From Desulfatiglandaceae bacterium (GTDB taxonomy: Bacteria; Desulfobacterota; DSM-4660; Desulfatiglandales; Desulfatiglandaceae), in NCBI GenBank assembly GCA_046498185.1, contig JAWOBE010000179.1, forward strand, positions 48,583-112,582: DNA of 64,000 nt. The letters run 5' to 3'. Of this stretch, positions 4,182 to 24,700 are shown piece after piece. The first letter of the stretch is position 1. Every line of letters starts with the position of its first letter. The position numbers and the translations under genes are program-made. The notes below the pieces were generated by a model, which was not told where the DNA came from, ran no database searches, and was given only the letters and a program-made list of their open reading frames with translations.

Positions 4182-4940
4182 CTATTTTGACGGTAAAAAA
4201 GCATCCAGCACCTTTCCCACTGCATCGAAAGCCTCACCTCGATTGATCACCCCACCGTCAAAACCCGCATCAAAAACCATTGGATCATTCGGAATCTTTC
4301 CAAGTATATCGATGTTCATTCCGTTCAATTCTTTATCGAGTTTTTCGGCGACCTGATCGGAAGGCACCTTGTTCAATACCGCATCAACAGCCTTGCCCAT
4401 TCCGCCTGCCAGCTCTTTTATCTTTTCGGCTACACGCAAGGACTCGTAGGAAGGCTCCACCACAATAATGACCCTGTCTATTCCCTCGTCGATCCCCCTT
4501 CCGAAATGTTCCACTCCGGCCTCCATATCTACAAACGTGACCATTTCGTTACCGGAGCGGAGTTTTTTCAAAAATTCCCGGCTCAACACACCCATCGGGC
4601 AGGCACAACCTTCAAGGGACTGTAGGATCTTTCCGATACTGACCAGAGACAATCCGTCTTTTCTTTCTATATAACTGGAAGGAATATCGTCGATCTCTAT
4701 TTCAGGCTGTTCAAAAATACTGGGCTGCTGCATATTTTTCTTAAGCGCGGATTTTCCTCCGACCATCTCCATTAAGGGGATCGGGGGCTTCTCAAAACCC
4801 AGCATCCTGAAAAGGCCGGAATTTGACTCATCTGAATCCACAACAAGAACTTTGAATCCGCGCTGTCGGGTCAAATTGGCAAGTAGTGTTACAACTGTGC
4901 TTTTTCCGCTTCCGCCTTTTCCACAAACTGATATTTTCAT
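4182..4940 (-). CDS. cooC: CooC-type P-loop NTPase (Ni-insertion / CODH maturation factor family)
   Basis: Has the deviant Walker A motif CGKGGSGKST and the CooC-type CxC motif (EGCACPMG). AGAGG RBS. Confidence 0.8.
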   Translation of the reverse strand: MKISVCGKGGSGKSTVVTLLANLTRQRGFKVLVVDSDESNSGLFRMLGFEKPPIPLMEMVGGKSALKKNMQQPSIFEQPEIEIDDIPSSYIERKDGLSLVSIGKILQSLEGCACPMGVLSREFLKKLRSGNEMVTFVDMEAGVEHFGRGIDEGIDRVIIVVEPSYESLRVAEKIKELAGGMGKAVDAVLNKVPSDQVAEKLDKELNGMNIDILGKIPNDPMVFDAGFDGGVINRGEAFDAVGKVLDAFLPSK

Positions 4941-5347: not shown

Positions 5348-5851
5348 TCATTTCAAATTATAATGACATTCAGGCGGGATGCATAAGACAGGCCTCTTTA
5401 TGAATCTCAGGACTTTTTCCGTCGTGCTCCCGAAAAAAATCGCCTTCATGTCATCTGAATTCCCTTTGCTTCCCATTATGATCATATCTACGTCGTTCTC
5501 AACCGCCTTTTTGTTGATCTCGATACAAGGTGCACCTTCGCAGACAATCATTACCACGTCTTTTTCGTCAATCCCTTCGCTGAGGATAAAATCTTTGAGT
5601 CTTTTTTTTGAATTGATGAACACCTTCTTTTTAATATCACCACTCGTGCCTAAATTTTGTTGCACACAATGCTTGATAAAGTCCTGGTCTATAACATGTA
5701 GCGCCAGGATTTTCCCCCCGTTCACATCGATCCAGGATTTCCCCCGCCTTAAAGCCAGCCTCGAACAATGGGAGAAATCGATGGCCACCAACACACCTTT
5801 GCGTGTTGTATCCATGTGTCCGGCAGATCGCGGCTTTCGGTTCATTATCAT
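5348..5851 (-). CDS. Universal stress protein (UspA family)
   Basis: Shows the VLVAIDFS...MIIMGSKGNS...FFGSTTEKVLRFIKRPVLCI pattern. The true start may be the internal MDTTRKG (5815). Confidence 0.8.
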   Translation of the reverse strand: MIMNRKPRSAGHMDTTRKGVLVAIDFSHCSRLALRRGKSWIDVNGGKILALHVIDQDFIKHCVQQNLGTSGDIKKKVFINSKKRLKDFILSEGIDEKDVVMIVCEGAPCIEINKKAVENDVDMIIMGSKGNSDDMKAIFFGSTTEKVLRFIKRPVLCIPPECHYNLK

Positions 5852-5865
5852 GCACCCGGTTTATT

Positions 5866-6159
5866 TTAGACTTTTCGCAGCCTGACAGCTCCCCTGGGAC
5901 ACTGCTCGACACATCTCCTGCAACCGATGCATCGTTTTTCATCCACTACAGCGATGTCTCCTACCACAATGGCACTTACAGGGCACACTCTTTCGCAAAG
6001 CCCGCAGCCTATGCACGATTCAGAGTCAACAACCGCAATGTACCCCGGCCTTCCAACGTGCCCCTGGATTTCACGGATGCGCCCCTCAAGCAGATCGAGA
6101 CGTGCGCCGATCTCTTGTGCCCTGGCCTTCAGTAGATCCATTTCCGCTCTGGAATTCAT
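5866..6159 (-). CDS. Small 2x[4Fe-4S] ferredoxin with an N-terminal coiled-coil (DUF5320-like) segment
   Basis: Contains [12 protein letters not shown] and [12 protein letters not shown]. Its ATGA start overlaps the stop of the upstream NifX-like gene. Confidence 0.75.
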
Positions 6160-6518
6160 AAGATATCCGCTGCGCCTCCCCCCGCTTCACACCCCGGCAT
6201 TCGGAGGTCTTTTCTATAAACATCTCCTGCCAAAAAAGCCTCAAGCACTTCTTCGACAGGCCCTGCGACGAATGGCACAATTCTTATTCTACGCGCTTCG
6301 ATCAGACTTGCAAAAAAATCCGATATTCCTCCGCAGATCAAAATGTTGACGCCAAGTTCAGCAAGCCTTGCCACGCGTGAAAAAGCCAGCCCTTTCTCGA
6401 TCGGCTCGAAATGTTTCCTGACTTTACCGCTTTTTTCAATATCCGCAATAAGCAGCATGCCCGCGGAATCGAAAAGGGGCGATATACGGTTTTCCCAGAC
6501 AGTCAAAGCCACCTTCAT
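6156..6518 (-). CDS. NifB/NifX-family (dinitrogenase Fe-Mo cofactor-binding fold) protein
   Basis: 120 aa reading [28 protein letters not shown]...[11 protein letters not shown], typical of the NifX/NafY-like domain. Confidence 0.7.
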
Positions 6519-6547
6519 CCAAGAAATCCTCCATACTATAATTTATA

Positions 6548-6563
6548 GCAAAAAGCATGCCTA
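6548..6563 (-). promoter_or_regulatory. Sigma-54 (-24/-12) promoter candidate for the minus-strand gene string
   Basis: The minus strand reads TAGGCATGCTTTTTGCTA. GG and GC have the canonical 12-nt register of TGGCAC-N5-TTGCW. The -12 element lies 30 nt upstream of ATG 6518. Confidence 0.55.
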
Positions 6564-6695
6564 AGTTAGCGTTGAATCTGCTTATCAGTTTAATGATGTA
6601 TTTTTGAGTTGTTACAACCGGAAAGCATGAAGGGAAAGAAGTCATATAGTCTTATATATGCAACTCTATATGCTCCTACAGTCTCTGTTATGAGA

Positions 6696-8096
6696 CTATT
6701 CTTTAACTGTCGCCCTATATCGTCCGTCCTTTTCAGGGAGCTTTATCCCAAGCCTGTTGATTTTTCGATACAGGGTACTCTTATGAATTCCTAACTCACG
6801 GCTGGTGGCAAACCGATTGTAGCGATTGCGTTTCAGGGCATCCAGAATCACACGGGCTTCAGCTGTTTGCAGTGCGGTTGTTATGTTTGTTTCTGCAGGC
6901 CGCGAAGAAACAGCCGTGGAAAGATAATCCGGTAGACAGCGAACCTCAATACGGCCTTCGGGGCACAGCACGAAAGCATGTTCGATGATATTCTCGAGTT
7001 CCCTGATATTTCCGGGATAATTATGGAACATCAACAGCGAAACAGCTTCCTGGCTTATTCCTTCAACGGCTGTGCCTCGCAGCCGATTCAACTTATCTAT
7101 AAAATATTTGACCAGCATCGGAATATCTTCCTTCCGTTTACGCAATGGAGGAAGATCCAGGCACACTACATTTATTCGATAAAAAAGATCCTGCCTGAAC
7201 CCTCCGGTTTTCACAAGTTCAGAAAGGTCTTTGTTTGTAGCGGCAATTATTCGCACATCGGCTTCAACGGACACTGTCCCTCCGAGAGGCTGATATGTCT
7301 TTTCTTGAAGTACTCTCAATAGACGTGCCTGAAAAGCCCCACTCAGGTCACCGATTTCGTCGAGCAGAATAGTACCCCCTTCGGCAAGTGCGAAATGCCC
7401 GGGTTTATCCTTAGCGGCATCCGTGAAGGCCCCGGCCTTATATCCGAAAAGTTCAGATTCCAGCAATGTGTCCGGTAGCGCTCCACAATTGATAGCGACA
7501 AAAGGCTTATCGCGTCTCCGGCTCAGGTCGTGAATCGCCCTGGACATAAGTTCTTTGCCTGTTCCTGTTTCACCCTGAACCAAAACCGTGCTGTCGCTTC
7601 CCGCCACCTGCGGCAGAATACGAAAGATCCCGGCCATTGAAGAACTTCTGCTGACCATGTCTCCCAGTTGGTAGCGCCCTTCCAATTCTTTTCGCAATTC
7701 TTCAAGCTGGCTTATGTCCCGGAATGTTTCAACCCCGCCCAGCACCTTTCCCTTCTCATCTTTAAGCAATGAGGTGCATACCGTCACCGGAATCCGGCGC
7801 TTTCGGCTATCCACGATATACGTAGAAGTGTCCACCAAAGTTCTGCCTAGTTTCATCGTGCGCCGAAGCGCACAATCCGATTCGCACATATTAGAACGAA
7901 AAACCTCCCAACAGTGTTTACCCAGTGCCTTTTCCCGAGCAATTCCAGTAATTTTCTCCGCTGCGCCGTTGAATGAAGTCACGCGCCACTCATGATCCAC
8001 GGTGAAAACCCCGTCTGATATACTTTCAAGGATTATTTCCGTTACATGCGAAGGAATTCTATATCGATTGTTTCCCAGGTTCATCAATTTCATCAC
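6696..8096 (-). CDS. Sigma-54-dependent transcriptional activator (PAS - AAA+ - HTH; no receiver domain)
   Basis: Has a PAS-like N-terminus containing HCWEVFRSNMCESDC. AAA+ motifs are GETGTGKEL, GAFTDA (the GAFTGA loop) and ESELFGY. The C-terminus carries the HTH STLYRKINRLGI. Confidence 0.9.
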   Translation of the reverse strand: MMKLMNLGNNRYRIPSHVTEIILESISDGVFTVDHEWRVTSFNGAAEKITGIAREKALGKHCWEVFRSNMCESDCALRRTMKLGRTLVDTSTYIVDSRKRRIPVTVCTSLLKDEKGKVLGGVETFRDISQLEELRKELEGRYQLGDMVSRSSSMAGIFRILPQVAGSDSTVLVQGETGTGKELMSRAIHDLSRRRDKPFVAINCGALPDTLLESELFGYKAGAFTDAAKDKPGHFALAEGGTILLDEIGDLSGAFQARLLRVLQEKTYQPLGGTVSVEADVRIIAATNKDLSELVKTGGFRQDLFYRINVVCLDLPPLRKRKEDIPMLVKYFIDKLNRLRGTAVEGISQEAVSLLMFHNYPGNIRELENIIEHAFVLCPEGRIEVRCLPDYLSTAVSSRPAETNITTALQTAEARVILDALKRNRYNRFATSRELGIHKSTLYRKINRLGIKLPEKDGRYRATVKE

Positions 8097-8534
8097 CGTT
8101 ATCGACCTCGGATGGGCCTCTTCCGAAAGCGAACACCACCTTCATTCGGCACCGTCATAATAATCATCCCTGCCCCCAGGGACACGACCTCAGAGTCGTT
8201 ACTTGACCTGGTTTTCCGGCAATTCCATTTCAACCGGTCGGGATTATTTTAAAAATTTAGCATTTCCAGATGAACCCGGCAAGTACCAGCCGTCATTTGG
8301 AAAGCACAAAAGTATTGATGACAAAGGATACAACAACTGTTGCAAATGGCTACGCATGTCAAACATGCTGATATCACTAGTATTAAAGATAAAAGGCAAT
8401 TGAAAATCCCTCCGGACTGTAGCCGATTTAATCGATCGCCCGATTTTTTCCTTCAAAATAAATATCAGGGCCGGATGTTAAAATACGTTTCTTTTCAGTT
8501 ACCTGGATATGGGCCGGCCCCTTGGGGAACATCA

Positions 8535-8550
8535 TGGCATCAAGGTTGCA
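8535..8550 (+). promoter_or_regulatory. Sigma-54 (-24/-12) promoter candidate for the Hdr-like selenoprotein operon
   Basis: TGGCAT-CAAGG-TTGCA is a near-consensus match to TGGCAC-N5-TTGCW. It lies about 110 nt upstream of the RBS-supported ATG at 8660. Confidence 0.65.
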
Positions 8551-8659
8551 TTGTTAAAGTATACCCAATGACCCGGGGATGGCTTTGGGTCGAAACGACC
8601 GAGCCGCGAATCTCGTTGCGGAGGTTTTAATAGTGATCACTGCCTTCGGAGGAACAGCC

Positions 8660-9967
8660 ATGATACTTGAAAGAAAAACCAGCCGAACTGAAAGTAGAGG
8701 TATGGCGGGCTTGAATGTCATTGAGAAGCAGTGTGTCTGGATGAAAGCCGGTATCATCAACTTTCGAATTTGTGAAAAGAACTATGACTGCTTCCATTGT
8801 CCCTTCGATAGAGCCATGAGGGTCGCCATGGAGGCCCAGAATCCCCTGACCGGCACCAAACGGCCGCCCTCGTGGGCCCAAAAAATGCGAAAGACGTATT
8901 CCGGCGCTGAAAAGCCCTGCGTATATTATTTGAACGGCCGGGTCGGCCCTCCCGGAACCTGTCCCCGTGATTACCACTGTGAGGACTGCCCACTGGAAAT
9001 CGAACTCGGCTATAAGTCCGTGCAAAGGTCCATCGAGGCGGCCCGGTACTCTGCAGAATTGGATAAATCACATCGGGTAACCGGGTTTCAGGTCGTCGAA
9101 AATGAATGCGTATGGATGAAAGCCGGTATCGTGAGCTTCCGCCTCTGTGATAATAACTACGATTGCTACAATTGTGAATTCGACCGCAGCATGCGTCACG
9201 CAATGGAAGAAAAAAAAACCGCAGAAGTCCAGTCTTCTGAAGAAACGGCCGGGACACCGAAAATTGGTGTTGCGGCTCATCCATGCATTTACCACCTGAG
9301 TGGAAAAAGCGACGCACCGATAGAATGCAGCAGGGCCTATGAGTGTTATCGTTGCCCGGTTCACAGAACTTTGTCGAAAGGCATCGAAGTTAAGCCGGCA
9401 CCGATGAAACGGCCCGCTTATAAGACAGTGTCCGGCTTCGAAGTGGCCGACGGTTACTATTACCATTTCGGGCATACATGGGTTCACGTCATACATGGGG
9501 AATGCGTCCGGGTTGGGTTAGACGAATTTGTTGACAAAATTTTCGGCGCCCCGGACATCCTGGATCTTCCTCTGCCCGGCGCCCTTATCAAGCAGGCAAA
9601 GATCGGCTGTGTGCTGATGCGGGATGACCAGCGTGCGCCTGTTCTCTCGCCGCTTACAGGCAGGGTGTTGGCCGTGAACGACAAAGCCGTAAGAAAACCT
9701 GAAATTGTTCATGAAGATCCGTATCACGAGGGCTGGCTGTTTCAATTGGAACCTTCTTTCTTAAAACTTGAGACGCAGGGTCTTTATACGGGTCAACATA
9801 CTTTCGAATGGATGGAAAGAGAAAACCAACTGCTTCTTAAATTGCTCGGGCCATCCTATGAAAAATTGGCTGCAACCGGAGGAAAAATCGTTCCGGATCT
9901 TATCGGGGGTCTTCCCGAAATAGGCTGGGATGCACTGGTTGCGACCTTTTTGAGAACCAAAGCGTGA
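8660..9967 (+). CDS. Uncharacterised 16-Cys protein (four Cx12-13Cx5Cx2C motifs) with a C-terminal GcvH-like domain lacking the lipoyl-lysine
   Basis: I chose the start at ATG 8660 (GGAGGA 6 nt upstream) because the track start at 8579 sits too close to the promoter. The C-terminal half aligns gaplessly to GcvH (YYYHFGHTW...PLTGRVLAVN...DPYHEGWLFQLE). Confidence 0.8.
   Translation: MILERKTSRTESRGMAGLNVIEKQCVWMKAGIINFRICEKNYDCFHCPFDRAMRVAMEAQNPLTGTKRPPSWAQKMRKTYSGAEKPCVYYLNGRVGPPGTCPRDYHCEDCPLEIELGYKSVQRSIEAARYSAELDKSHRVTGFQVVENECVWMKAGIVSFRLCDNNYDCYNCEFDRSMRHAMEEKKTAEVQSSEETAGTPKIGVAAHPCIYHLSGKSDAPIECSRAYECYRCPVHRTLSKGIEVKPAPMKRPAYKTVSGFEVADGYYYHFGHTWVHVIHGECVRVGLDEFVDKIFGAPDILDLPLPGALIKQAKIGCVLMRDDQRAPVLSPLTGRVLAVNDKAVRKPEIVHEDPYHEGWLFQLEPSFLKLETQGLYTGQHTFEWMERENQLLLKLLGPSYEKLAATGGKIVPDLIGGLPEIGWDALVATFLRTKA
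8732..9355 (+). repeat. Intragenic tandem duplication: two about 85-aa 8-Cys modules with a 375-nt period
   Basis: CVWMKAGIINFRICEKNYDCFHC (starting at 8732) matches CVWMKAGIVSFRLCDNNYDCYNC (starting at 9107). The two copies share the exact 18-mer TGGATGAAAGCCGGTATC. Confidence 0.85.
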
Positions 9968-9991
9968 TAAATGTGAATGAAGGAGTTTCCC

Positions 9992-12900
9992 ATGAGTGAT
10001 CAAACCCTCGGATCGGTGATGGTTATCGGCGGTGGTATTTCCGGCATTCAGGCTTCGCTGGATCTTGCCGAGTCGGGTTATTATGTCCACCTTGTGGAAA
10101 AACAACCTGCGATCGGCGGTGTCATGAGTGCGCTCGACAAGACATTCCCCACCAATGAATGTGCGATGTGAATACTTTCACCTAAACTGGTCGAGGTCGG
10201 CCGGCATTTGAACATCGAGTTGCATACCCTTACCCAAGTAGAAAGCCTGGAGGGCGAAGCAGGAGCATTTACCGCAACGCTGCGGGAAAAACCCCGTTAT
10301 GTGGATGTCGACAAATGCATCGCTTGCGGACTGTGTGCTGAAAAGTGCCCTAAAAAGGTGGATGACGTTTTCAATGAGCACCTGAACAAACGAAAAGCCA
10401 TTTATGTGGAATATCCACAGGCAGTTCCACTCAAATATGCGATCGATGCTGAAAACTGCATCTATTTTCAAAAAGGCAAATGCCGGGCATGTGAAAAATT
10501 CTGTCCGGCCGGGGCCATTGATTTCACCCAGCGTGAACGCACGTTTACACTGGATGTGGGTTCGGTGGTGCTCTCATCGGGCGCAGAGCCTGCAGATCCA
10601 TCCAGCCTCGTTTTTTACGGCCACGGCCGATTTCCAAATGTAATCACAGCCATGCAGATGGAACGAATACTTAACGCAACCGGTCCTTACCAGGGGAGGC
10701 TCATCCGTCCCTCCGACGGTAGGGAGCCGGAGCGCATCGCATGGATACAATGCGTCGGTTCCCGGGATACGCATACCCCGGGGTCTACCGGTTATTGCTC
10801 CGGCGTTTGCTGCATGTATGCGGTGAAGGAAGCCACAATCGCCAAAGAGCATGCCGGCAAAAACCTTGATGCGGCCATTTTCTTCATGGACATGCGGACC
10901 CACGGCAAAGGTTTTGAGCGCTATTATCGACGGGCTGAAGATGACCTGGGAGTCCGCTTCATCCGCTCCCGCGTACATTCCGTCGTTCCCGCGGCCGATG
11001 GGTCGGATGACCTCAAAGTCGGCTACGTGGATGAAGCGGGCAATGCCATGGAAGAGCAGTTCCAGATGGTGGTTCTTTCTCACGGTCTCAAAGCCCCCCG
11101 GGAGATGCAGGCTTTAGCGGAAAGGCTTGATATCTCGATGAACACCGATGGTTTCATAGAAACCAGCAGCCTTAAACCGGTCGAAACATCGAGGCATGGG
11201 GTTTTTGTATGCGGCTGCGGCGCCAATCCAGTCGATATCCCCCAATCTGTGATGGAAGCATCCGCGGCCGCTTCGGCGTCCGCATCCCTTCTGTCCAAAT
11301 CCAGGAACACCTTGACTCGTCACAAGGAATATCCTCCTGAAACAAGTATCCAACCTGAAAAGATGCGAATAGGCGTTTTTGTCTGTCATTGCGGAATAAA
11401 CATCGGTGGCGTCGTCGATGTACCTGCGGTTCGGGACTACGCCCGTGAACTGCCGGGCGTCGTTTATGCCGGCGACAACCTTTTTTCCTGCAGCCAGGAC
11501 ACCCAACAGGCGATTCGCGATGCCATAGCAGAGCACAATTTGAATCGGGTGGTGATTGCGGCATGTACTCCCAGGACCCACGAACCGCTGTTTCAAGAAA
11601 CCATACGCGAAGCAGGTTTAAATCCATATCTGCTTGAATTCGCGAACATACGCGATCAAGACTCATGGGTTCACCAATCCCAACCCGAGGAAGCCACAAT
11701 AAAGGCTATGGATTTGGTCCGGATGGCGGTATCCAAGGTAGCGCTGTCGGAACCCGTCGATCGGTTGAAGCTGCCGGTCAATCCTTCGGCCCTTGTTGTC
11801 GGCGGGGGTCTTGCAGGCATGACAGCAGCGGTCCAGCTTGCTGACCAGGGCTTCCAGGTGTACATAATCGAAAAGACAGGCGTCCTGGGCGGGAATGCGA
11901 CCAGCATCAAAACCACCTGGGACGGAGGAGATGTCCAGGGCTACATGAAGGACCTGACAAAACGGATTGAAACGAACTCTCTCATAGAAGTCTTGCTGAA
12001 AAGCCGGATCGAATCTGTTTCAGGGTTCATCGGAAACTTTAAAACGGTTGTAAACACCGGTCAAGACCAACGCGAAGTCAGCCATGGTGCCGTCATCCTG
12101 GCAACGGGCGGAGATTATTACAGGCCTGAAGAATATCTCTATGCTACCGACGACAAGGTGACCTGTTGGCATGAGCTGGAAGATCTTTTTGAAAGGGAGC
12201 CCGAGCGGCTGGAAGACGCAGAATCCGTGGCATTTATACAGTGTGTGGGTTCCCGGGAACCGGATCGCCAGTACTGCTCACGCATCTGTTGCACATCTTC
12301 GCTTTTGCAGGCGATAGACTTAAAAACAAAAAAACCTCAACTGGACGTCTATATTCTGTACCGGGACATAAGAAGCTACGGACTCAGAGAGGAGCTCTAC
12401 CGGAAAGCGAGAGAAATCGGCGTGACGTTTTTCCGGTACACCCTCGATGAAAAGCCCCGGGTGGAAACGGGGGACAACGGCCGGCTTACAATTACCGTAA
12501 AGGACCATGTCCTGGGCTCTCCGGTAAGTTTTCAAGTAGATTATTTAAATCTTTTCACTGCGTTGGTTCCGCAGGGGGAAAATGAAATATCGAGGCTTTT
12601 CAAGGTACCGGTCAACGAAGACGGCTTCCTGCTCGAAGCTCATATGAAACTCAGGCCTGTTGATTTCTCGACTGATGGTGTTTTCCTATGCGGACTTGCG
12701 CATTACCCAAAACCGATCGAAGAATCCATCGCACAGGCGCAGGCTGCAGCCGCCCGTGCCGCCGGGGTGCTCACTCGGAAATTCATCGAGGTTGAACCTA
12801 TCGTCTCGGTCATTGATCAGGAAAAATGCATCGGGTGTGGTTTCTGCGAGGCTTCTTGTCCCTACGGGGCTGCACAGCTCGTCAAAGTGGAAGGCAAGGG

Positions 12901-13648
12901 ATTCAGAGCCGAAAGCAACCCGGCGCTTTGCAAAGGATGCGGAATTTGTGCCGCCGGTTGTCCCCAAAAGGCCATCGATATGCTTCATTTCCGCGACAGC
13001 CAGATTCTGGCTGCTGTCGAAGCAGGGGCGGAAAAGGTGCAGAGGATGAAAAAAACGGAGCTCGAAGTTCGAAAAAAATACAGCACATCGGGATCCGGCT
13101 ACCTGGTTGCCGACGATTACTATTATCATTCCGGACACACATGGGCGAAGCCCATCAAAGGCGGCCGCGTCCTGATCGGGGTGGATGATTTTGCGGGAAA
13201 AATTCTTGGAAAAGCCGACCGGCTGAACCTTCCGGAACCCGGAACCGTCTTGAAGCAGGATCGGCCGGGATGGTCTTTAAACCGTTCGGGCCGCCGGGCC
13301 GCCTTTCTTGCACCGGTAAGCGGACGGGTCTTCGCGGTCAACGAAAAGGTGGTAGCGAACCCTGAAATATTACTAAAAGACCCGTATGGTAAAGGATGGC
13401 TGCTCGTGCTCGAGCCTTCGCTTGTGAAGCCCAAAGAGATTGAAGCCCTTTACAGCGGAGATCAAAGCTTCCGATGGATCGAGAAAGAATTCCAGGCATT
13501 GCTGGATCTCATGGGGCCTCAACATGAACGGCTGGCCTCGACCGGAGGCGGTCCTATTGAAGACCTGTTCGACAAGTTCCCTGAAATTGGTTGGAAAAAG
13601 CTGGTTGGAACATTCTTAAAAACGACGGATGACCGGCCGGCCGATTAA
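9992..13648 (+). CDS. hdrA: Giant HdrA-like selenoprotein (two FAD/TrxR-like units, ferredoxin inserts, C-terminal GcvH-like module); Sec codon at 10169-10171
   Basis: The track splits this gene into 9977-10171 and 10208-13648, which share one frame. Read-through gives ...[24 protein letters not shown]..., the conserved HdrA Cys/Sec position. Other motifs are VIGGGISG and VVGGGLAGM (FAD), [17 protein letters not shown]...YCS..CC (twice) and several CxxCxxCxxxCP. AGGAG lies 7 nt before ATG 9992. Confidence 0.9.
10187..10204 (+). promoter_or_regulatory. Putative bacterial SECIS hairpin for hdrA-1
   Basis: Stem-loop CUGGUC-GAGGUC-GGCCGG starts 16 nt after the UGA. The apical loop contains GGUC. 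Confidence 0.6.
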
Positions 13649-13674: not shown

Positions 13675-14427
13675 ATGACGGAAAAATTCAAACCACGAAT
13701 CCTGGCGTTTCTCTGCAATTGGTGCGCCTATGCAGGTGCAGACCTTGCCGGCGTTTCAAGGATACAATATCCGCCCACGATACGGGTGATACGGGTGATG
13801 TGCTCCGGCCGGGTCGATCCTGCTTTCATCGTCAATGGTCTTGCAAAGGGTTTTGACGGCGTGATGGTATCCGGGTGACACATCGGTGAGTGTCATTACC
13901 TGGATGGTAATGTTCATGCGGAAAAGGAAATGGAGATCGTTCGGTTCCTGTTGGACCTCTCCGGCATAGGTTCCGATCGTTTATTCATGCGGTGGGTCAG
14001 CGCCTCGGAAGGCGCCCAGTTCGCCGCCTACGTAAAGGAATTCAGCGAAACGGTGGAAAGACTCGGGCCGTTCATGCCTGGCGACTTTGAAATCCCACTG
14101 GCTGCTCTTGAAAGCACATTACATGCTCCGCGTTTGCGGTGGCTGACCGGAATGGAGATTAAAATTACCGAACAAGGCAATGTCTACCAGGAAAAAATTG
14201 ATAAGTCCGACTACCGGGACACCCTTGAAAGTGCAGCCCGCGAAGAATACGAAAAGGCCCTTGTGTTGGAATCGCTTCGCAGGGAGCACACCAGCGTCCG
14301 GGAAATCGCCATCGAAACGGGTATGCCCGTTTATACGGTCTCATGTCGACTTAATGAACTCGAAAGAGCCAGACTGGTGGAGTTGAAAACCTACCGGGGG
14401 AGCACCCCGGAATTCAGAGGAGCGTAG
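13675..14427 (+). CDS. mvhD: MvhD/FlpD-like selenoprotein fused to a C-terminal winged-helix-like domain; Sec codon at 13876-13878
   Basis: The track splits this gene into 13675-13878 and 13930-14427, which share one frame. Read-through gives ...GFDGVMVSG-U-HIGECHYLDGN..., which matches the GCHxGDCHY motif of MvhD. The N-terminus reads ILAFLCNWCAYAGADLAG. The C-terminal tail is VREIAIETGMPVYTVSCRLNELERARLVE. Confidence 0.85.
13894..13912 (+). promoter_or_regulatory. Putative bacterial SECIS hairpin for mvhD
   Basis: Perfect 7-bp stem CAUUACC-UGGAU-GGUAAUG starts 16 nt after the UGA. Confidence 0.6.
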
Positions 14428-14475: not shown

Positions 14476-17400
14476 ATGGATATAGCAGAGAAAAAAAATG
14501 ACAGAATAGGTTCGGTTATTGTGGTTGGAGCCGGGATTTCCGGCATGCAGTCGGCGCTCGATCTGGCAGGCTCCGGTTTTTATGTTTACCTGGTGGACAG
14601 CTCTCCCAGCATCGGTGGGATGATGGCGCAGCTGGACAAAACCTTCCCGACAAACGACTGTGCGATGTGAATCATCTCACCCAAGCTGGTCGAGGTCGGC
14701 CGCCATACAAATATAGAGGTGATCACCAATTCGGAAATCGACAAGCTGGAAGGAGAACAGGGCAACTTTCAGGTTACGCTTAAAAACAACCCGAGATTTA
14801 TAGATCCGACGGCATGCACGGGTTGTGGGCTCTGCAGCCAAGCCTGCCCGGTGACCGCAATCAATGAATTCGACTGCCGCCTTTCTCAAAGGTCGGCCGC
14901 TTTCATCCCCTATGCTCAAGCAGTACCGTTGGCCTACAGCATCGACCGCAAACGATGCATCGGCTGCGGTCTCTGTGAAAAAATCTGTCTGGCTGGCGCG
15001 GTCCAATACGACGACGCCCCGCGGGAAACACAGCTGAATGTCGGAGCGGTCGTCCTCGCCACCGGGAACCGGACCTTCGACCCGTCTGATCTCGACACCT
15101 ACAGATACAATGAGTGTCCGAATGTCATAACAAGCCTGGAGTTCGAGCGGATTCTCAATGCCTCCGGCCCCTATATGGGGCACCTGATGCGACCTTACGA
15201 CCGTGAGGAACCGCGCAAAATAGCCTGGATACAGTGCGTGGGTTCGAGAAGTCTCCAAAACGGGGCCAAGCCTTACTGTTCCTCGGTTTGCTGCATGTAC
15301 GCGGTGAAGGAGGCCGTGATCGCCAAGGAACATGCACATGGAGATCTCGACACCGCGGTGTTCTTTATGGACATGCGAACCTATGGAAAAGAATTCGAAC
15401 AGTACTATGAACGCGCCTCGCTCAAACACGGTGTGCGATTCATTCGTTCCCGCGTACACAGCGTGGACCCCGTCGGCGATGGGGACTTGAAAATTTCTTA
15501 TATCGAAGAAAACGGCGGAATTAAAAGCGAAACCTTCGATCTTGTCGTGCTATCGACGGGACTGGAAGTTTCACAGGTATCGGTGGATCTCGCAAACAAA
15601 CTCGGAGTGGATCTGAACGAAAATCGGTTCGCAAAAACCGACAGTTTCAAGCCGGTCGCCACGTCGGTCCCTGGCATTTATGTCTGTGGTGCCCTTCAGG
15701 GCCCTAAAGACATCCCTCAGTCTGTGACCGAGGCTTCCGCCGCCGCCGCCCTTTCCGGGGCGCTTTTGAGCGAGAGCCGCTGGAGCAAGTGTCGGGAAAT
15801 TGAATTGCCGGAAGAATCCAACGTGAAAGGAGAACCGCCGAGAATCGGCGTTTTCGTATGCCATTGCGGAATTAATATCAGCGGTGTTGTGGATGTCCCG
15901 GCCGTCCGCGACTATGCTCGGAGTCTCCCGTATGTGGTTTATGTCGAGGACAATCTGTACACCTGCTCTCAAGACACACAGATCAAAATGGCTGAGGTTA
16001 TACGCGAGCAGGGCATCAACCGCGTTGTCGTTGCCGCCTGTACACCCAAAACCCATGAACCCCTTTTTCAGGAAACCCTTCAAAATGCGGGGTTAAATAA
16101 ATATTTGTTCGAAATGGCCAACATCCGCAATCAGGATTCCTGGGTTCACAACAGGAACCCCCATTCCGCCACGGAAAAAGCCAAGGACCTGGTTCGAATG
16201 GCGGTCGCCAAGGCGGGGTTTCTCGAATCCCTTCCGGAAACAGAGCTTTCGTTGAACCCCGTCACGCTCATCATAGGCGGAGGGGTTGCCGGCCTTACGG
16301 CGGCTGAGAATCTGGCCGACCAGGGCTATAAAGTTCATCTGGTCGAGCGATCCGCCGAGTTGGGAGGACAGGCCAACTTTTTGTACAAAACCTGGAAGGG
16401 AGAAGACATAAAGGCCGGGCTCGATCGACTCATAGCCAGAGCAAAAAACCACCCGAATATAACGGCACATCTGGAAACGGAAGTCGTCCACGTCGATGGA
16501 TTTATAGGTAACTTTTCTTCGGTGCTGCGCAAAGCCGACGGCCACGAAAACACCCTCGAACATGGGGTCGCGATCATCGCGACAGGAGGAGAAGAATATA
16601 AACCCGATGAGTATCTTTACGGCAGCAACCCCGCGGTGGTAACCCACCTGGAGCTTGATCGACGATTCTCAACCGATGATCCGTCGATAACGGAACTTGG
16701 CAGCGCAGTCTTCATCCAGTGCGTGGGCTCCCGGCAGCCGGATCGCCCCTATTGCAGCAGGGTTTGCTGCACTCACACGGTAGAAAGTGCTCTTGAGCTG
16801 AAACGTCGAAACCCGGAGATCGAAGTTTACGTGCTCTACCGTGATATGCGGACTTATGGAGAACGGGAGGAATTATACAACCGCGCACGGGAACAGGGTG
16901 TCATATTTATCCGCTACGACCTGGAAAATAAGCCGGTATTCACGGAAAACGACGGAAGTCTCCAGGTCGAGGTGCACGATCCGATTCTTGGTTCAAAGAT
17001 CCTTCTCAGGCCGGATCTCGTCACCCTTGCCACAGCGGTTGTTCCTTCAGGTGGAAATGATTTGGCGAGCCTCTTCAAAATCAGCAAAGACGGAAGCGGT
17101 TTCTTCACAGAAGCACACGCAAAACTGAGGCCGGTCGATTTCGCCACAGACGGAGTCTTTCTCTGCGGACTGGCCCATTATCCCAAATCTCTGGATGAAA
17201 GCGTCGAACAGGCTCTTGCCGCAGCCGGGAGAGCTTCAGCTTGCCTGGCGGCTGCCAAGGTGATGGTGGGTGGTTCTGTGGCCGAAGTCAATCCGGCATT
17301 TTGCAGTCGATGCGGCATGTGCGTCGAGATCTGCCCTTTTGGAGCCGCCGGCTTTACAGAAGAAGGTTATGCGGCGATAAACGCCGCCCTGTGCAAAGGT

Positions 17401-17493
17401 TGTGGCCTTTGCACGGCATCCTGTAGAAGTGGCGCACTCACTCTCAAATGTTGCGATGATTCCCAGATAATGGCTATGATCGACCAGATGTGA
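14476..17493 (+). CDS. hdrA: Giant HdrA-like selenoprotein paralog (same tandem architecture, no GcvH-like module); Sec codon at 14668-14670
   Basis: The track splits this gene into 14476-14670 and 14719-17493, which share one frame. Read-through gives ...[24 protein letters not shown].... The protein is collinear with hdrA-1 up to the C-terminal ferredoxin domain. Confidence 0.9.
14686..14703 (+). promoter_or_regulatory. Putative bacterial SECIS hairpin for hdrA-2
   Basis: UGGUC-GAGGUC-GGCCG has the same position and loop as the hdrA-1 hairpin. The 17-mer CTGGTCGAGGTCGGCCG is identical between the two paralogs. Confidence 0.6.
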
Positions 17494-17528
17494 TCCTAGA
17501 GGCCTCCTCTTTTGTCTCCATATGAGAA

Positions 17529-17570
17529 AAGCCCCCGACTGACGTCAGGATAAGGCGTTGCCGGGGGCTT
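17529..17570 (+). terminator. Stem-loop after hdrA-2 (9-bp stem AAGCCCCCG/CGGGGGCTT, 24-nt loop with a nested palindrome CTGACGTCAG); possible operon terminator
   Basis: Read directly from the sequence. There is no U-tract afterwards, so terminator function is uncertain. Confidence 0.35.
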
Positions 17571-17594
17571 CGATGCAGGGGGGGTTCGCTTGTC

Positions 17595-17692: not shown

Positions 17693-19234
17693 ATGCCAGA
17701 GACTTTAAAACTGAACCTGGCTATCGTCGGTGGAGGCAAAACATGTCGCTACTTTTTGGAGCTCCTCCAGAAGAAAAACTATTTCCCGTATCTTTCGATC
17801 ACGATTTTTGGCGTATGTGATATTAACCCGGATGCCGAGGGCCTGCGCCTGGCCCGGGATCTCGGTATCACCACAACCAACGATTATCGCAGCATAATCA
17901 ACCTACCGAACTTGCACGGCGTCATAGAATTGACCAATGACCGCACGGTGCTTATGGACCTGATACGCCTTAGACCAAAAGGTGTCTGGGTCCTGGAACA
18001 TAACATCGGGCGTATGCTTCAAAGGCTGTTTCTCCTGGACGAGAAATTAAAAGCGAAGGATGATGAAGTCGCTCTCGAGCGCATGATTTCAGATATTCTG
18101 CTTCACCGGAGCAATGACCGCATCGTGTTGCTGGATCCCGATTTTCGAATTCTCGACGCCAATGATGGCTACCTTAAAGCGGTGTCTAAAAGTCGGGAAG
18201 AGGCTTTAGGAAAACCCTGCTACAATATTGTCTACGGATTCAATCTCCCCTGCCCCGAACTGCGACCAAGCATGAAATGCCCCATGCTGGAAACTCTGAG
18301 AACCGGCGACAGCACAAAAGTGATTCATGAAATCGTCGACGAGACAGGAGAACGGAACTATTGGAGCCTGGAAACCCATCCGGTGAAAGACCGGTCCGGC
18401 GAGGTGGTGAGGGTGATCGAAATCCGCAGGGACATCCCGGAAGAACTCCCCTCTCTATGGGAAAAACGCCTGCAGGAAGTCAAAACCGATCTGGGAAAAG
18501 TCGTTCAGGAAGACCGAATGCTTTCCCTGGGAAAACTTTCCGCCAGTTGTGCTCATGAAATCAACAACCCAATCCAGGGTCTCCTTACTTTTTCTCACCT
18601 GATAAAATCGATGCTCGATGAAGGAAAACCCACTGAAGAGGACCTGCAAAATTTCAAGGAGTTCATCGCATTGATGTGCAGTGAGCTGGAGCGTTGCGGG
18701 GATATAACATCCGGCTTGCTTTCCTTCGCCAGACAATCCCTGATGGCCGCGGCTGAAGTCGATTTGAACGAAGCACTTCGATCGGTCATAACCCTCGCAC
18801 GGCACCATATGGAACTACAGAATATCCGGCTCGAAATGAACCTATATCATGGAATGCTTACTATCAGAGGAGATATCAACCACTTGCAGCAATGCTTTTT
18901 GAACCTTGTCTTTAATGCGATAGAGGCAATGCCCGATGGGGGTAAATTAATTGTCACAACCGGTCTGGATGAAAAAAAACATCGTGCATCGATAATGATA
19001 AAAGACACTGGAACCGGAATCGACAAAGCAATAATCGACAGGATATTCGATCCCTTCTACACCACCAAATCACAGGGGAAAGGCACTGGACTGGGCCTGT
19101 CGATCGTTTACGGTATCGTCAAGGGCCATAAAGGGCTGATCAACATCGAAAGCGAAAAGGGTGAAGGCTCGGTGGTGACGGTGACATTTCCGGTGCTTTA
19201 CACCACCGGGAGTTCAGGAGACAACAATGAATGA
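17693..19234 (+). CDS. Cytoplasmic sensor histidine kinase (Rossmann-like N-domain - Cys-containing PAS - HisKA - HATPase)
   Basis: No transmembrane segments are evident. The N-terminus reads LAIVGGGKTCRYFLELL. The PAS domain contains GKPCYNIVYGFNLPCPELRPSMKCP. The H-box is SASCAHEINNP, and the ATPase G-boxes are DTGTGI and GTGLGLS. Confidence 0.85.
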   Translation: MPETLKLNLAIVGGGKTCRYFLELLQKKNYFPYLSITIFGVCDINPDAEGLRLARDLGITTTNDYRSIINLPNLHGVIELTNDRTVLMDLIRLRPKGVWVLEHNIGRMLQRLFLLDEKLKAKDDEVALERMISDILLHRSNDRIVLLDPDFRILDANDGYLKAVSKSREEALGKPCYNIVYGFNLPCPELRPSMKCPMLETLRTGDSTKVIHEIVDETGERNYWSLETHPVKDRSGEVVRVIEIRRDIPEELPSLWEKRLQEVKTDLGKVVQEDRMLSLGKLSASCAHEINNPIQGLLTFSHLIKSMLDEGKPTEEDLQNFKEFIALMCSELERCGDITSGLLSFARQSLMAAAEVDLNEALRSVITLARHHMELQNIRLEMNLYHGMLTIRGDINHLQQCFLNLVFNAIEAMPDGGKLIVTTGLDEKKHRASIMIKDTGTGIDKAIIDRIFDPFYTTKSQGKGTGLGLSIVYGIVKGHKGLINIESEKGEGSVVTVTFPVLYTTGSSGDNNE

Positions 19235-20573
19235 AAAATTCAGGCTCATGGTAGTGGACGACGAAAAAATCGTTCGGGAGTCACTTTACCACTGGTTCAA
19301 AAAGTCCGGCCACGTCGTAGAAACGGCGGCATCCGGTTTCGAGGCCCTCGAAAAACTTGAAAAAACACCCTTTGATCTGCTGTTCGTGGATATAAAGATG
19401 CCGATGATGAACGGTCTCGAACTGCTGGGAAAAGTAAAGGAAGAATACCCGGATACAATCGTCGTTATAATTACGGCCTACGGATCAATCGACAATGCTG
19501 TGCAGGCGATGAAAATGGGTGCCAGCGACTACCTGCTGAAACCTTTCAAACCGGACCAGATGTCGCTCCTGCTGGAAAAACTCGCCAATCAGAAACGCCT
19601 TGCCGAGAACTACCGTTATGTCAAAGGGGTTCTTGACGAACTCATCCGTTTCGACAATATCATTGGCCGGTCAAAACCGATGCAGCAGATATTCAATATC
19701 ATTCCCGAAGTGGCACAGTCAGATTCCGCCGTGCTCATCACCGGAGAAACCGGCACCGGAAAAGAACTGGTCGCCAAGGCCATTCATGCGAAAAGTCCTC
19801 GGGCTCACGGACCGTTTATCGCTATCAACTGCGGAGCAATGCCGGAAACATTGCTCGAAACCGAGTTGTTCGGTCACCGGAAAGGGGCTTTCACCGGTGC
19901 GAATCAAAACAGGAAAGGCTTCCTGGAAGTCGTGTCCGGCGGAACGCTCTTTCTGGATGAAATTGGCGAAATAAGCCCCAAAATGCAAGTAGACCTTCTG
20001 CGCGTGCTGGAAGAAAAGGAAGTCATCCGGGTAGGAGACAGGGAGCCGATCACCGTGGACTTCCGACTGGTTTCCTCGACATGCAGAAAACTTGATGAGG
20101 AGGTGAAAGCCGGCAATTTCCGTGAAGATTTCTTTTACCGGATAAACGTTATCACAATCCCCATCCCGCCGCTCCGTGAAAGAAAAGAGGACATCCCCCT
20201 GCTGGTCGAGCATTTCTTGAACAAATACAGCCATGAAACCACCAAAAAGGTGGACAAAACCACGGCCGAAGCCTTGGCCTTTCTAAAGAGTTATGATTGG
20301 CCGGGTAATGTCAGGGAGCTCGAGAATGCTATTGAACGTGCAGTTGTACTTTCCAAGTCCAGGACCCTCGGTGTAGATTCTTTTTCTTTTCTGCAGCCTG
20401 CTAGAACCGGATACAAAACCCGCCGCACACTTCGCGAGATGGAAAAAGATTATATAGAAGAAACCCTGGAACACCAGAACTGGAACGTGACCCGCTCCGC
20501 TGAAATCCTTGGTATCAACCGGGTCACGCTTCACAAGATGATCAAAAGGTATAACATTGAACGAACCCGGTAA
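19227..20573 (+). CDS. NtrC-family sigma-54-dependent response regulator (REC - AAA+ - HTH)
   Basis: The receiver domain shows DLLFVDIKMP. AAA+ motifs are GETGTGKEL, GAFTGA and ETELFGH. The C-terminus carries the HTH AEILGINRVTLHKMIK. It overlaps the kinase gene by 8 nt. Confidence 0.9.
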   Translation: MNEKFRLMVVDDEKIVRESLYHWFKKSGHVVETAASGFEALEKLEKTPFDLLFVDIKMPMMNGLELLGKVKEEYPDTIVVIITAYGSIDNAVQAMKMGASDYLLKPFKPDQMSLLLEKLANQKRLAENYRYVKGVLDELIRFDNIIGRSKPMQQIFNIIPEVAQSDSAVLITGETGTGKELVAKAIHAKSPRAHGPFIAINCGAMPETLLETELFGHRKGAFTGANQNRKGFLEVVSGGTLFLDEIGEISPKMQVDLLRVLEEKEVIRVGDREPITVDFRLVSSTCRKLDEEVKAGNFREDFFYRINVITIPIPPLRERKEDIPLLVEHFLNKYSHETTKKVDKTTAEALAFLKSYDWPGNVRELENAIERAVVLSKSRTLGVDSFSFLQPARTGYKTRRTLREMEKDYIEETLEHQNWNVTRSAEILGINRVTLHKMIKRYNIERTR

Positions 20574-20594: not shown

Positions 20595-21152
20595 ATGTCG
20601 GGCATAAAGGCTCGTGTGGGGATCATGGCATTCGGCTCGCCGCCGGCGGAAGTTCTCCGGTCTATCGCGGAAGCTGTTCCGGTTCATTTCGGTATGCCGG
20701 TGGAAATCCTTCCCCCGGTCAAAACTCCATCCTATGCATTCGACCCTGCGAGAATTCAATATAACGCTGTATCGATCATCGAAAATATCGAAGCGATGAA
20801 ATTTCCTCCGGACCTAAAGATCCTTGGAGTTTTGACCGTGGATCTTTTCCTTCCGGTTTTCACTCATGTTTTCGGGGAAGCCCGGCAAGGGGGAAACTGC
20901 GCTTTGGTTTCGCTGCACCGGCTTGGTCACGACGCCGGGAGTTCCCTTACATCCCCCGCATCCATCAGTAAAAGGACCACAAAGGTGGCCCTTCATGAAC
21001 TCGGCCACCTCTTTAACATAGTCCATTGTTTCGACCGCTGCTGCCTGATGCATTTCTCAATGGATCTTGATGAGCTGGACTGTATACCGGTTGAATTCTG
21101 CCGCTACTGCAAAGCTTTTTTGGATGAGTCAATCAAGCAGTTTCGCAAATGA
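20595..21152 (+). CDS. Archaemetzincin-like zinc metallopeptidase (M54)
   Basis: Contains the HELGHLFNIVHC...CCLMH motif (HExxHxxGxxH plus a Cys cluster). Confidence 0.7.
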   Translation: MSGIKARVGIMAFGSPPAEVLRSIAEAVPVHFGMPVEILPPVKTPSYAFDPARIQYNAVSIIENIEAMKFPPDLKILGVLTVDLFLPVFTHVFGEARQGGNCALVSLHRLGHDAGSSLTSPASISKRTTKVALHELGHLFNIVHCFDRCCLMHFSMDLDELDCIPVEFCRYCKAFLDESIKQFRK

Positions 21153-21733: not shown

Positions 21734-24700
21734 TCAGCGATCTTCCGTAATAACCCTTTTGATCCTGTTTACCATATCTTTGAATCGAATGCGATTATCG
21801 GGATTACGGTTTACAATATTAACGCCCGAAATACCTCCGCGTTTCATAATATATTCGCTTCCGCCCTCTTTTATCGTCCCGTTTATCGTGAAATAGTCGT
21901 TGTCTAAAGAAGCCCTTACGCCGATTTTCTTGTAACCCAGCGTTTCAAAAAATGATGTTAACACACCGGCAAAACCTGAGAAAGGGCTTTCTCCTGCGCC
22001 TATTCGGGATATGTTTTCCACGGCCTTTATACTGATCCTTTGATTCTCGGGCCCCTGTTCCGTCTCAAGCAGCATATCGAAATGCTGGGGCTGACTGCCT
22101 GCAATTTCAAGGTTCCGAATGTATCCGTTCATTATCCCGTCAATCCTCCCGAAAGGAGTGTCTCCAGTCAATTTCCCGAGGTTAATGCCTGAAAAATCAA
22201 GCGAAAGTTTAAGCAGGGGAGACGCTGAGAAAATCCTTTCGGCCTTCAGGCCGGTGATCGAGACTTTTCCCTCGAAGATTTCCCCTCTGAGGCTGCCGCT
22301 TGTGTTGATTTGATTGTTTTCTAAAACCACCGGATCGAGCAGCCCTTCAAGCTTTGAATTTCTTTCCCGGGGCCATATTCCGGACAAAAACGGTGATAAA
22401 TCCTCGAATAAAATCCTGGCTGAGGTTTCCACCTTCAATCCTTCCCGCAGGATATCTGCTGATAAGGCCTTGCCGAACTCGATTCTACCGACAGGAATCC
22501 TAATCACCGTAGGAACCGGAATCCCGATGCGGTTCGGAACGGCTTCGATCTTAAAATCCAGACCTTGCACTGGAAAAAACGGTGCTCTAAGTTCTGCGAT
22601 CGAAAGCCGCCCGGAAGCCGGTTCAAAATCAGCATGGACCCGGTTTTCCCGTGCACCTGACTCAATCCATACAGGCAGATCGATGTTTATATCATTTCCA
22701 GATATTTCCTTTTCAGCTGCGGAAAAACGGCCTTCTCTCAGTTTAACTCCACCCATGATGGACAGTACCGTAGGAGAGTATGACAGTTCCATGTCCGCGG
22801 AAATCTTTCCTTCGGGCTGCAGTTTATCAAGTAGCGGTACCCGTCTTCCGAGCGGTTCCCTGACCAGGAGATTATAAAGTGGAGACAGGGAAGCCCGGGG
22901 GAAATGAATGGCCAGCCGGGTTGAGGCGACAGAGCCGACATTCGCGGTTCCTTCCAACACTATATCGAATAATTTTTCAAATCCCATGCTATACCGCCCC
23001 ACCCGGACCTGCCCCTTGTCTAACACAAAATCCACAAGTCCGCTTGACCTAAACGGGTTCAGCCCGAGGTCCAGGTAATACAAGTCCAGCAAGAGCTCAC
23101 CTTCCGTTGCACGGGTGGACAATTCCCCGGAGATTGATATCGTATCCAAATCCACCCTGCCATCAAAATCGAAACTTACGGACAGCCCTTCGCCGATAAA
23201 GCGGCCGCTGGGATCCTGGAAAAAAAGACCTTCGAGCTTTATCCCCGAATTCAGCGCTATCGTACCCTCAGAATTCAGGGATGCTTCGAGCTCGATCATA
23301 TTCCTTCCGGATACCTCCCAATCCACCGGCACCAGCCCGAGTTTCACGGCAAGCGGAACCAACCCGGCGCCCTCCCCTGCGACTGAGATGTAGAACATTT
23401 CAGGGTTTATCCGCCCGCTCGCTGAAAAATTCCCCGCCGGCGGAAAGGAAATCAAAACTTTGGAAAAATCAACTGAAAGGCTATCCAGGTCCACCTCGAA
23501 GCCGGATCCGGTCGCACGAATATTCTCGAAAGTAATACCTTTGCCGGGTGTAGCTAAAACCGTACGCGGGGCCCGAGCCGAAAACCGTTCGACTTCATAT
23601 TTCGGGTGCTTTCCTGAAAAATGCATTTCAGTATCGGCGAGGTCAACGACCGCGGCATCGCTTGAAAAAGTTCCTTTTGAAAGCACCAATCCGGCACTGG
23701 AAATGGCTGGAAATCCGCTGGAGTCAATCGAAAATTTCGCCGTTCCGGAAACGACACCGGCAAAATCAGAGCTATCCGTTTCCCAGGAAAAAGCTGTTCC
23801 TTCTACAATAGCTTCCGCATCCCCTTCCAGGTTCCATTTTTCATCGACCATTATACCTTCGGCTCGTCCTGCTAAATTTAGAGAGCCGTTCACCTTCATC
23901 CCAGGCAACCCTTTGGAGATAAAAAGAGGAAGGTTTGAAAGCTGGAGCAAACATCTTTCAGCGTTTACCTTGAATTCCGGCCGGGGCTCGATCCGACCTT
24001 CAAGGCTGCCGTCGAATTCCAGGACCTTTCCGGCTGTAATCACTGCATTTGAGGCTGTAATCGATTTTTCGACAAAATCAGCATCGAGATCAAATCGACC
24101 GCAGATTCCGGCGAATTTCTCTTCCCTGATTGCCAGCTCGGCGTCTTTTATCTCAAGGTCCGCAGAAACCCTTATGGAGGGGAATGAAATACCTGGCTGC
24201 AGAGCAAGCCGAAGATCAGGAACAAAAAACGCTCCGTCGATATCTTGCATCCGCACGTCGGCCTCACCTTCGATTCTTATCCGGCCCTCCGGGTCGCGAT
24301 GGGCCGAAAGCCGAGCCATAGCCAGATCCAAACCCTCGAACCGCGCATCTACATCGCCCTTATCAATCGAAATTTCACGGATAAAAACATCCTTGAAAAA
24401 AATAAAGCCGGCCAGTCGCCCAAGGGTTTTTCGAAAAGCGCCATCCCTTTCAGATTGCTTCCAGGAACCTTTGAAATCCATTTCCCGGATTCTAACCGAC
24501 AAACCTCCGGCCCTGACATAATCGACAACCAGGATCCGGTGGCCGAATCGTCCGTCAAGATGCATCCTGCAGGCCAGCTCGGAAATTTGAACCTTAAAGG
24601 CATCCGGGTTTGAAGGAGATGAAATGTTGACGGCCCATGCATCTATGCACAAAGGATGAATCGACCACTCCAGGCGCTCTGCCTGGACTTCAAGTCCGAC

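Follow-up and report, generated by a model that had tools for sequence, protein, structure and literature searches.

The DNA analysed here is a stretch of 64,000 nucleotides (nt), referred to as the window, on contig JAWOBE010000179.1 (positions 48,583 to 112,582) of a Desulfatiglandaceae bacterium (assembly GCA_046498185.1). This study concerns one of its genes, which encodes two modules of paired cysteine fingers joined to a C-terminal domain resembling the H protein of the glycine cleavage system (GcvH). The host is a sulfate-reducer-type bacterium, and the gene leads an operon for selenoproteins of the HdrA type. In the list of open reading frames (ORFs), the gene appears as a plus-strand ORF at 8579..9967 of 462 amino acids (aa) with a mechanical start at ATG 8579. 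However, a GGAGG sequence stands 7 nt upstream of ATG 8660 and the homologues begin at the methionine of that codon; therefore, ATG 8660 is probably the true start, and the predicted product has 435 aa. The gene and its parts are as follows.

8535..8550, plus strand: sigma-54 (-24/-12) promoter motif TGGCATCAAGGTTGCA, about 110 nt upstream of ATG 8660.
8660..9967, plus strand: gene for the two-module cysteine-finger/GcvH-like protein (ORF list, GGAGG, homologue starts, metatranscriptome contigs).
8732-8800, plus strand: finger 1A, C-x12-C-x5-C-x2-C, CVWMKAGIINFRICEKNYDCFHC (regular-expression scan; cysteines invariant in two-module homologues).
8918-8989, plus strand: finger 1B, C-x13-C-x5-C-x2-C, CVYYLNGRVGPPGTCPRDYHCEDC (regular-expression scan; cysteines invariant in two-module homologues).
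9107-9175, plus strand: finger 2A, C-x12-C-x5-C-x2-C, CVWMKAGIVSFRLCDNNYDCYNC (regular-expression scan; cysteines invariant in all 120 aligned homologues).
9284-9355, plus strand: finger 2B, C-x13-C-x5-C-x2-C, CIYHLSGKSDAPIECSRAYECYRC (regular-expression scan; cysteines invariant in all 120 aligned homologues).
9458..9811, plus strand: GcvH-fold domain without the lipoyl lysine (Pfam GCV_H, Foldseek, alignment to 1onl).
9812..9964, plus strand: helical C-terminal extension, ~50 residues long (W, E, G, P, Y, T and D columns invariant; predicted local distance difference test score, pLDDT, above 90).

The first-pass annotation of the window had described four C-x12/13-C-x5-C-x2-C motifs made by internal tandem duplication, and a regular-expression scan recovered all four at exactly these positions. 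Six-frame translation of the window yields the pattern five times, and four of these occurrences fall in ORF 8579..9967, far more than expected by chance. The fifth (21039-21110, CCLMHFSMDLDELDCIPVEFCRYC) is the cysteine-rich zinc motif of an archaemetzincin, and hhalign detected no similarity between that motif and the finger module. The 18-mer TGGATGAAAGCCGGTATC, also described earlier, is present only at 8738 and 9113, which gives a period of 375 nt. Duplication itself is borne out by the 39% identity of modules 1 and 2 over 114 aa (BLASTP, E 4e-30), and the duplicated unit is a pair of homologous fingers. A recent duplication at the DNA level was considered and rejected, since copies of module 1 from different species share 58% identity and have only 39% identity to copies of module 2, and since DNA similarity between the two copies is kept over 77 nt only (76.6%), within the first finger. 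These identities indicate that the module duplication is one old, clade-specific event. The exact 18-mer thus reflects constraint on the WMKAGI peptide.

Each finger follows the layout C-x12/13-C-x5-C-x2-C and is succeeded by a helix. The consensus of finger A, E-C-[IV]-W-M-K-A-G-[VI]-[VI]-N-F-R-x-C-D-N-x-Y-D-C-x-x-C-P-F-D, is resembled by that of finger B, P-C-R-H-x-L-T-G-R-I-D-A-P-K-I-C-x-x-N-Y-E-C-Y-H-C-P-F-D. Moreover, distant relatives show the x12 spacing in both fingers, and their B fingers are aligned with the profile's A half. Therefore, the basic unit is a finger of about 35 residues that is always paired.

A search of 5.8 billion proteins returned 471 relatives, the best 120 of which were aligned in detail. 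About 26 of these 120 are two-module proteins (~440 aa) and the remainder carry a single module (~313 aa); the comparison indicates that the one-module form is ancestral. The spacing is strictly 12/5/2 or 13/5/2 in all 120 relatives. All sixteen cysteines are invariant among the two-module proteins, down to 43% identity, and the eight cysteines of the GcvH-proximal module are invariant in 120 of 120 proteins, down to ~41% identity. Cysteine loss among homologues had been named beforehand as evidence that would speak against the motif; what the homologues display is constancy, which extends to the wider family, where 215 of ~225 complete modules retain all eight cysteines and a handful carry a substitution.

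An exhaustive search with a hidden Markov model of the module profile gave 909 representative clusters, and architectures were counted among the best 148 of these. A GCV_H domain is present in 36, and many others are short or fragmentary. Ten of the 148 join a receiver domain to a C-terminal module, and one has the order TPR-module-HisKA-HATPase. Named members come from Dehalococcoidia, Planctomycetota, Aminicenantes/Acidobacteriota, and candidate division B38, and the source databases name family proteins 'glycine cleavage system protein H'. One gene for the receiver-module form comes immediately behind those for a kinase and a sigma-54 regulator, and it has the only sigma-54 promoter match of its locus. 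In a Dehalococcoidia locus, a sigma-54 regulator, a receiver-TPR-module protein, NuoE/F-like genes, and a TPR-module kinase are found together. Because of these fusions and their sigma-54 loci, the module is tied to signalling as much as to redox enzymes.

The finger spacing had been noted as lying outside the recognised families, and this held in comparisons with Pfam, NCBIfam, PDB sequences, Foldseek, and hhalign, none of which gave a confident match to a characterised metal-binding family. The N-terminal half of the protein had no match in NCBIfam, where only GcvH-type models, below their cut-offs, fell on the protein. A profile built from 54 diverse modules (alignment A3) found only chance matches among PDB sequences (E 0.4 or worse). 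Foldseek returned H-protein matches only with the full model, none of them over the module, and no match with a low-confidence model of the module alone (pLDDT 63.5).

The nearest resemblance is to the CHY zinc finger (zf-CHY, PF05495), known from Pirh2/RCHY1 (PDB 2K2C). The full protein matches this Pfam model below threshold (23.1 bits against a cut-off of 31.3), and weak matches were found in 37 of the 54 modules when scanned singly (best E 2.6e-4), none above the gathering score. As the match was lost in nine of nine shuffles of module 2 in which the cysteines were kept fixed, the resemblance goes beyond cysteine spacing. The C-x13-C-x5-C-x2-C of finger B aligns with CHY C15...C29-x5-C35-x2-C38, and both have an aromatic residue two positions before the third cysteine. 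An hhalign comparison with residues 13-139 of the Pirh2 CHY domain, whose sequence was verified against 2K2C and 7YNX, also placed the cysteines in register, with a probability of 0.5% and E 0.11; an RCHY1-seeded search gave five homologues, too few for a useful profile-profile test. In contrast to the CHY finger, the module matches profile positions 10-44 of 68 only, lacks the C-x-H-Y signature and the histidine ligands, and offers four cysteines alone per finger. Histidine is found at +2 of finger B in 72% of sequences (tyrosine in the query), and no histidine is invariant in the module. Taken together, these comparisons place the finger module outside every modelled family and make it at most a distant relative of the central CHY finger part. 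A nucleic-acid-binding finger was also considered and is unlikely, given a near-neutral mean module charge of -1.5.

It is possible, on tentative grounds, that each finger instead ligates a [4Fe-4S] or [2Fe-2S] cluster and that the protein is an electron-relay subunit, either a polyferredoxin-like wire or an electron acceptor or donor for HdrA-MvhD. The C-x5-C-x2-C arrangement occurs in some Fe-S proteins and is taken here as a lead only. Proline directly after the last cysteine, seen in 53%–61% of fingers, would fit such clusters, as would the named matches, whose lineages appear to be mostly anaerobic sediment groups. However, no Fe-S family such as Fer4 or CCG recurs among the matches, and the only recurring weak match is to a zinc finger. 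Ferredoxin-type, CCG, and radical-SAM families gave no Pfam match to the query at E up to 1, and the sole Fe-S family met among the 54 modules scanned was NADH-G_4Fe-4S_3, in one chance-level match (E 0.69). A finger of 35 residues would also leave a cubane cluster exposed, and the receiver and kinase fusions are easier to reconcile with signalling than with a wire.

The C-terminal domain has the H-protein fold. Pfam GCV_H (PF01597) matches residues 294-411 (E 3.8e-14), and Foldseek pairs the domain, modelled with pLDDT above 90, with 1onl (E 1e-10, template modelling score 0.87). These matches and the source names favour the public annotation, by which the protein would be a genuine glycine-cleavage H protein with an extra N-terminal zinc domain. 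However, a phmmer alignment puts aspartate at the lipoyl-lysine position of 1onl (the E-S-V-K hairpin), the column is not conserved across the 120 homologues, and the copy fused to HdrA has glycine there. NCBIfam gcvH scores also stay below their cut-offs (54.6 against 117 bits for NF002270 and 48.3 against 115.85 for TIGR00527), as they do for the homologues. Likewise, Pfam revealed neither gcvT nor gcvP among the ten flanking ORFs (4182 to 24850) or in related loci; the neighbours are HdrA, MvhD, and two-component genes. We rejected a genuine H protein on the missing lysine and the sub-cut-off scores and regard it as highly improbable. Since the lipoyl lysine has been lost, the domain cannot serve as a lipoate carrier, and the database name is misleading as to function.

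Unlike GcvH itself (1ONL), the protein carries a helical extension and an N-terminal cysteine-finger domain, and the same C-terminal domain is also fused to HdrA. Related cases of the fold are known outside glycine cleavage. GcvH-L of Streptococcus pyogenes is still lipoylated and is then ADP-ribosylated. Its structure (PDB 5A35) has a divergent H-protein fold that Foldseek matches here at E 2e-5, whereas our protein lacks the acceptor lysine and has another domain context. The LbpA proteins are lipoate-binding proteins of sulfur-oxidising Hdr-like systems (PMC6067878). They share with our protein a GcvH fold encoded beside Hdr-type genes, but it has no lipoyl lysine and bears the N-terminal cysteine fingers.

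Nine bases 3' of the two-module gene begins an hdrA-like gene, followed by two further genes.

9977..13648, plus strand: HdrA-like flavoprotein (Pfam Pyr_redox_2, Fer4, GCV_H), with an in-frame TGA for selenocysteine (Sec) at 10169-10171.
13675..14427, plus strand: MvhD-like subunit, with an in-frame TGA (Sec) at 13876-13878.
14476..17493, plus strand: second HdrA-like protein, with an in-frame TGA (Sec) at 14668-14670.

The three TGA codons stand at positions of conserved cysteines (CAM-U-I in both HdrA proteins and SG-U-HxGxCHY in MvhD), and ORF callers split the genes at them; thus, the operon encodes three selenoproteins. The C-terminal 190 aa of the first HdrA (13073-13645) are 52% identical over 177 aa to the GcvH-like and helical domains of the two-module protein (E 1e-65). 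The helical extension therefore travels with the GcvH-like domain and is common to the HdrA C-terminus. In HdrA, this domain comes after the C-terminal ferredoxin domain, an arrangement that would also suit the electron-relay alternative. So would the gene content of the operon, which has HdrA, MvhD, and a second HdrA and no CCG-domain (HdrB/C) protein. Contigs in the metatranscriptome of a salt-lake study have exactly the sequence of 9160-9790 and of parts of hdrA; they weakly support transcription of the operon in nature, as DNA carry-over is possible.

Several other observations were made on this part of the window. MvhD has a C-terminal extension of ~90 residues (14150-14427; REIAIETGMPVYTVSCRLNELERARLVELK) that looks helix-turn-helix-like and for which no Pfam match was reported. 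A GC-rich hairpin, GCCCCCG...CGGGGGC, lies at 17515-17575, 3' of the second hdrA, and is followed by TT; this hairpin probably terminates the operon ahead of the kinase gene described below. In metagenome run X1, contig depth reaches ~1700 at 10140-10363 (17-70 elsewhere) with many loose ends at 10207-10219, probably through recruitment of contigs from many organisms by the conserved HdrA N-terminal motif. Further downstream, an ORF of 1038 aa on the minus strand (21734-24850) has no Pfam match at E 1e-5.

The gene is also predicted to be under sigma-54 control. TGGCAT-N5-TTGCA at 8535 is the sole strict match to TGGCAY-N5-TTGCW on both strands of the 64 kb, and the surrounding regulators are as follows.

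6696..8096, minus strand: OrpR-like PAS/sigma-54 activator, divergent from the gene (Pfam, sequence), a candidate activator of the 8535 promoter.
17693..19234, plus strand: soluble PAS histidine kinase with cysteines in the PAS domain (Pfam, sequence; synteny in ~60 loci).
19227..20573, plus strand: sigma-54 response regulator, REC-AAA+-HTH_8 (Pfam), with 60-77% identical orthologues beside the gene in most loci.
20595..21152, plus strand: archaemetzincin, peptidase M54 (Pfam, NCBIfam, synteny).

Two candidate activators are thus encoded nearby, namely the OrpR-like protein and the response regulator. The PAS domain of the former holds a C-x8-C-x3-C triad, and orthologues with 57-62% identity occupy the same divergent position in three of the loci compared (L031, L032, and L043). 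In OrpR of Desulfovibrio vulgaris, a C-x8-C-x3-C triad within the PAS domain binds a [4Fe-4S] cluster that is redox-sensitive (PMC8359166). The arrangement here is like the orp system (PMC8359166) in that a sigma-54 promoter lies beside a PAS activator with the same triad; it is unlike it in that the regulated gene is not an orp gene and the adjoining activator in most loci is a two-component response regulator. A search for repeats in 8097-8660 gave no convincing upstream activator site. Beyond the divergent activator, on the minus strand, lie genes for a ParA/NUBPL-type P-loop ATPase and a universal stress protein (4182-4940 and 5348-5851), which may form an orp-like cluster with it. No membrane segment is obvious in the cassette kinase (17693-19234), which contains an N-terminal GGGxxxxxxxLL stretch of Rossmann-like character and three PAS-domain cysteines spaced C-x10-C-x8-C; it may be a cytoplasmic redox sensor.

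Scanning one genome per species gave 326 loci, 85 of which were examined with tblastn. Most of the 326 come from metagenome-assembled genomes of Desulfobacterales, Desulfatiglandales, and other Thermodesulfobacteriota; the cultured Desulfospira joergensenii DSM 10085 is also among them, with a gene of the single-module form (locus L041). Of 82 loci, 75 have a relaxed -24/-12 motif ahead of the homologous gene (background, ~0.04 per 630 nt), and the motif is also found in candidate division B38 and before the receiver-module gene. The first-pass annotation had suggested that the cysteine motif might co-occur with HdrA. This is true of every two-module locus: an HdrA-like gene is downstream in all of them, MvhD follows wherever the locus is long enough, and the HdrA-like gene ends in a GcvH-like domain in eight of the eight with enough sequence. 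It does not extend to the single-module genes, which adjoin the kinase, the sigma-54 regulator, and the archaemetzincin instead, lying immediately before and convergent with that operon in ~60 of ~72 loci. The cassette occurs in several phyla; candidate division B38 has it in the order kinase, M54, sigma-54 regulator, and then the homologous gene with its own promoter. The kinase of this B38 cassette (locus L090, 2746-4776) carries Fer4, Fe_hyd_lg_C, and FeS domains before HisKA/HATPase and is thus an [FeFe]-hydrogenase-like sensor. Several single-module loci (L002-L005, ~5500-9800) have the kinase operon divergent from a Tmc-like set comprising an unknown 420-aa protein, a NarI-like membrane protein, a Fer4/CCG protein, and a cytochrome c3.

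The comparison bears on both alternatives for the fingers. NuoE/NuoF-like or hydrogenase-like genes near the gene in other loci would agree with an Fe-S relay, whereas the lack of any link to HdrA in most family members would not. Conversely, the conservation across phyla of a core made up of the gene and the kinase/regulator/M54 cassette, together with the receiver-module and TPR-module-kinase fusions, could mean that the protein is a zinc adaptor with no part in HdrA chemistry. Its fingers would then be structural Zn(Cys)4 sites for protein-protein contacts within the sigma-54 two-component pathway, with the HdrA neighbourhood being secondary; the protein might modulate the regulator or serve the archaemetzincin as substrate or partner. 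The sub-threshold CHY similarity beyond cysteine spacing and a module charge not typical of a nucleic-acid binder are compatible with this idea. However, it leaves unexplained the constant pairing of the two-module form with an HdrA bearing the GcvH-like domain, the CHY similarity is not significant, and an interaction with the regulator or protease is supposition. On balance, we consider such an adaptor unlikely. With regard to the metal, we lean slightly toward zinc-thiolate fingers of CHY-like ancestry, acting as sensor or adaptor, over Fe-S relay clusters, given the CHY-like signal, the small and aromatic-rich fingers, and the signalling fusions.

The reading that we prefer, with a probability of roughly 0.5, is that the gene encodes a sigma-54-controlled accessory protein whose fingers hold metal centres and which docks on HdrA as a redox sensor or electron relay. 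Each finger would hold one metal centre through its four invariant cysteines. The gene would be the output of a cassette made up of a redox- or H2-sensing kinase, a sigma-54 response regulator, and an archaemetzincin, and would be transcribed from the -24/-12 promoter at 8535 upon a redox or H2 signal, with the adjoining OrpR-like protein, a putative Fe-S redox activator, as a second candidate regulator. The two GcvH-like domains, one in the accessory protein and one in HdrA, may associate or share a docking site. If they dock, four cysteine-bound centres would therefore be placed on HdrA as a redox-sensing or electron-relaying accessory.

Several points weigh against this proposal. Metal binding is predicted from the invariance of the cysteines alone, and AlphaFold models the fingers with moderate pLDDT only (55-85 within the full model, 63.5 when the module is modelled alone). 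Similarly, docking of the GcvH-like domains is deduced from co-occurrence and paralogy alone. The promoter is a motif match rather than a mapped start, and either of the two candidate activators may act on it. Most family members have a single module and are not beside HdrA; thus, a role with HdrA is possibly a clade-specific add-on. In addition, no model or structure was found for the finger domain, and an incomplete literature search covering GcvH-like proteins, HdrA, CHY fingers, and the sigma-54 regulome gave no paper on the protein. With these points in mind, the protein is best described from its sequence as a Cys4-type finger, a putative metal site, set on an H-protein fold, in a regulated partnership with HdrA that was previously undescribed.

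A broader idea, which is speculative and rather doubtful, is that the finger pair represents a new kind of metallo-sensor domain, responsive to redox state or H2, with three uses: as kinase input, as a receiver-coupled module, and, when set on an H-protein fold lacking a cofactor, as a regulatory subunit that can detach. In this third use, it would switch flavin-based electron-bifurcating HdrA or NuoEF-type complexes on or off post-translationally, with archaemetzincin as its processing or turnover protease.

In sulfate reducers, syntrophs, and methanogens, electron bifurcation is driven by flavoproteins of the HdrA type, and there are many "orphan" HdrA-MvhD modules without HdrBC. The protein described here is a conserved and regulated candidate partner for such modules, with sixteen invariant cysteines and a docking-type domain in common with HdrA. 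Hundreds of database entries for its relatives are misnamed "glycine cleavage protein H", and a domain family of ~900 representative clusters in several phyla deserves a Pfam entry. Finally, a sigma-54 cassette of four genes is defined by the analysis.

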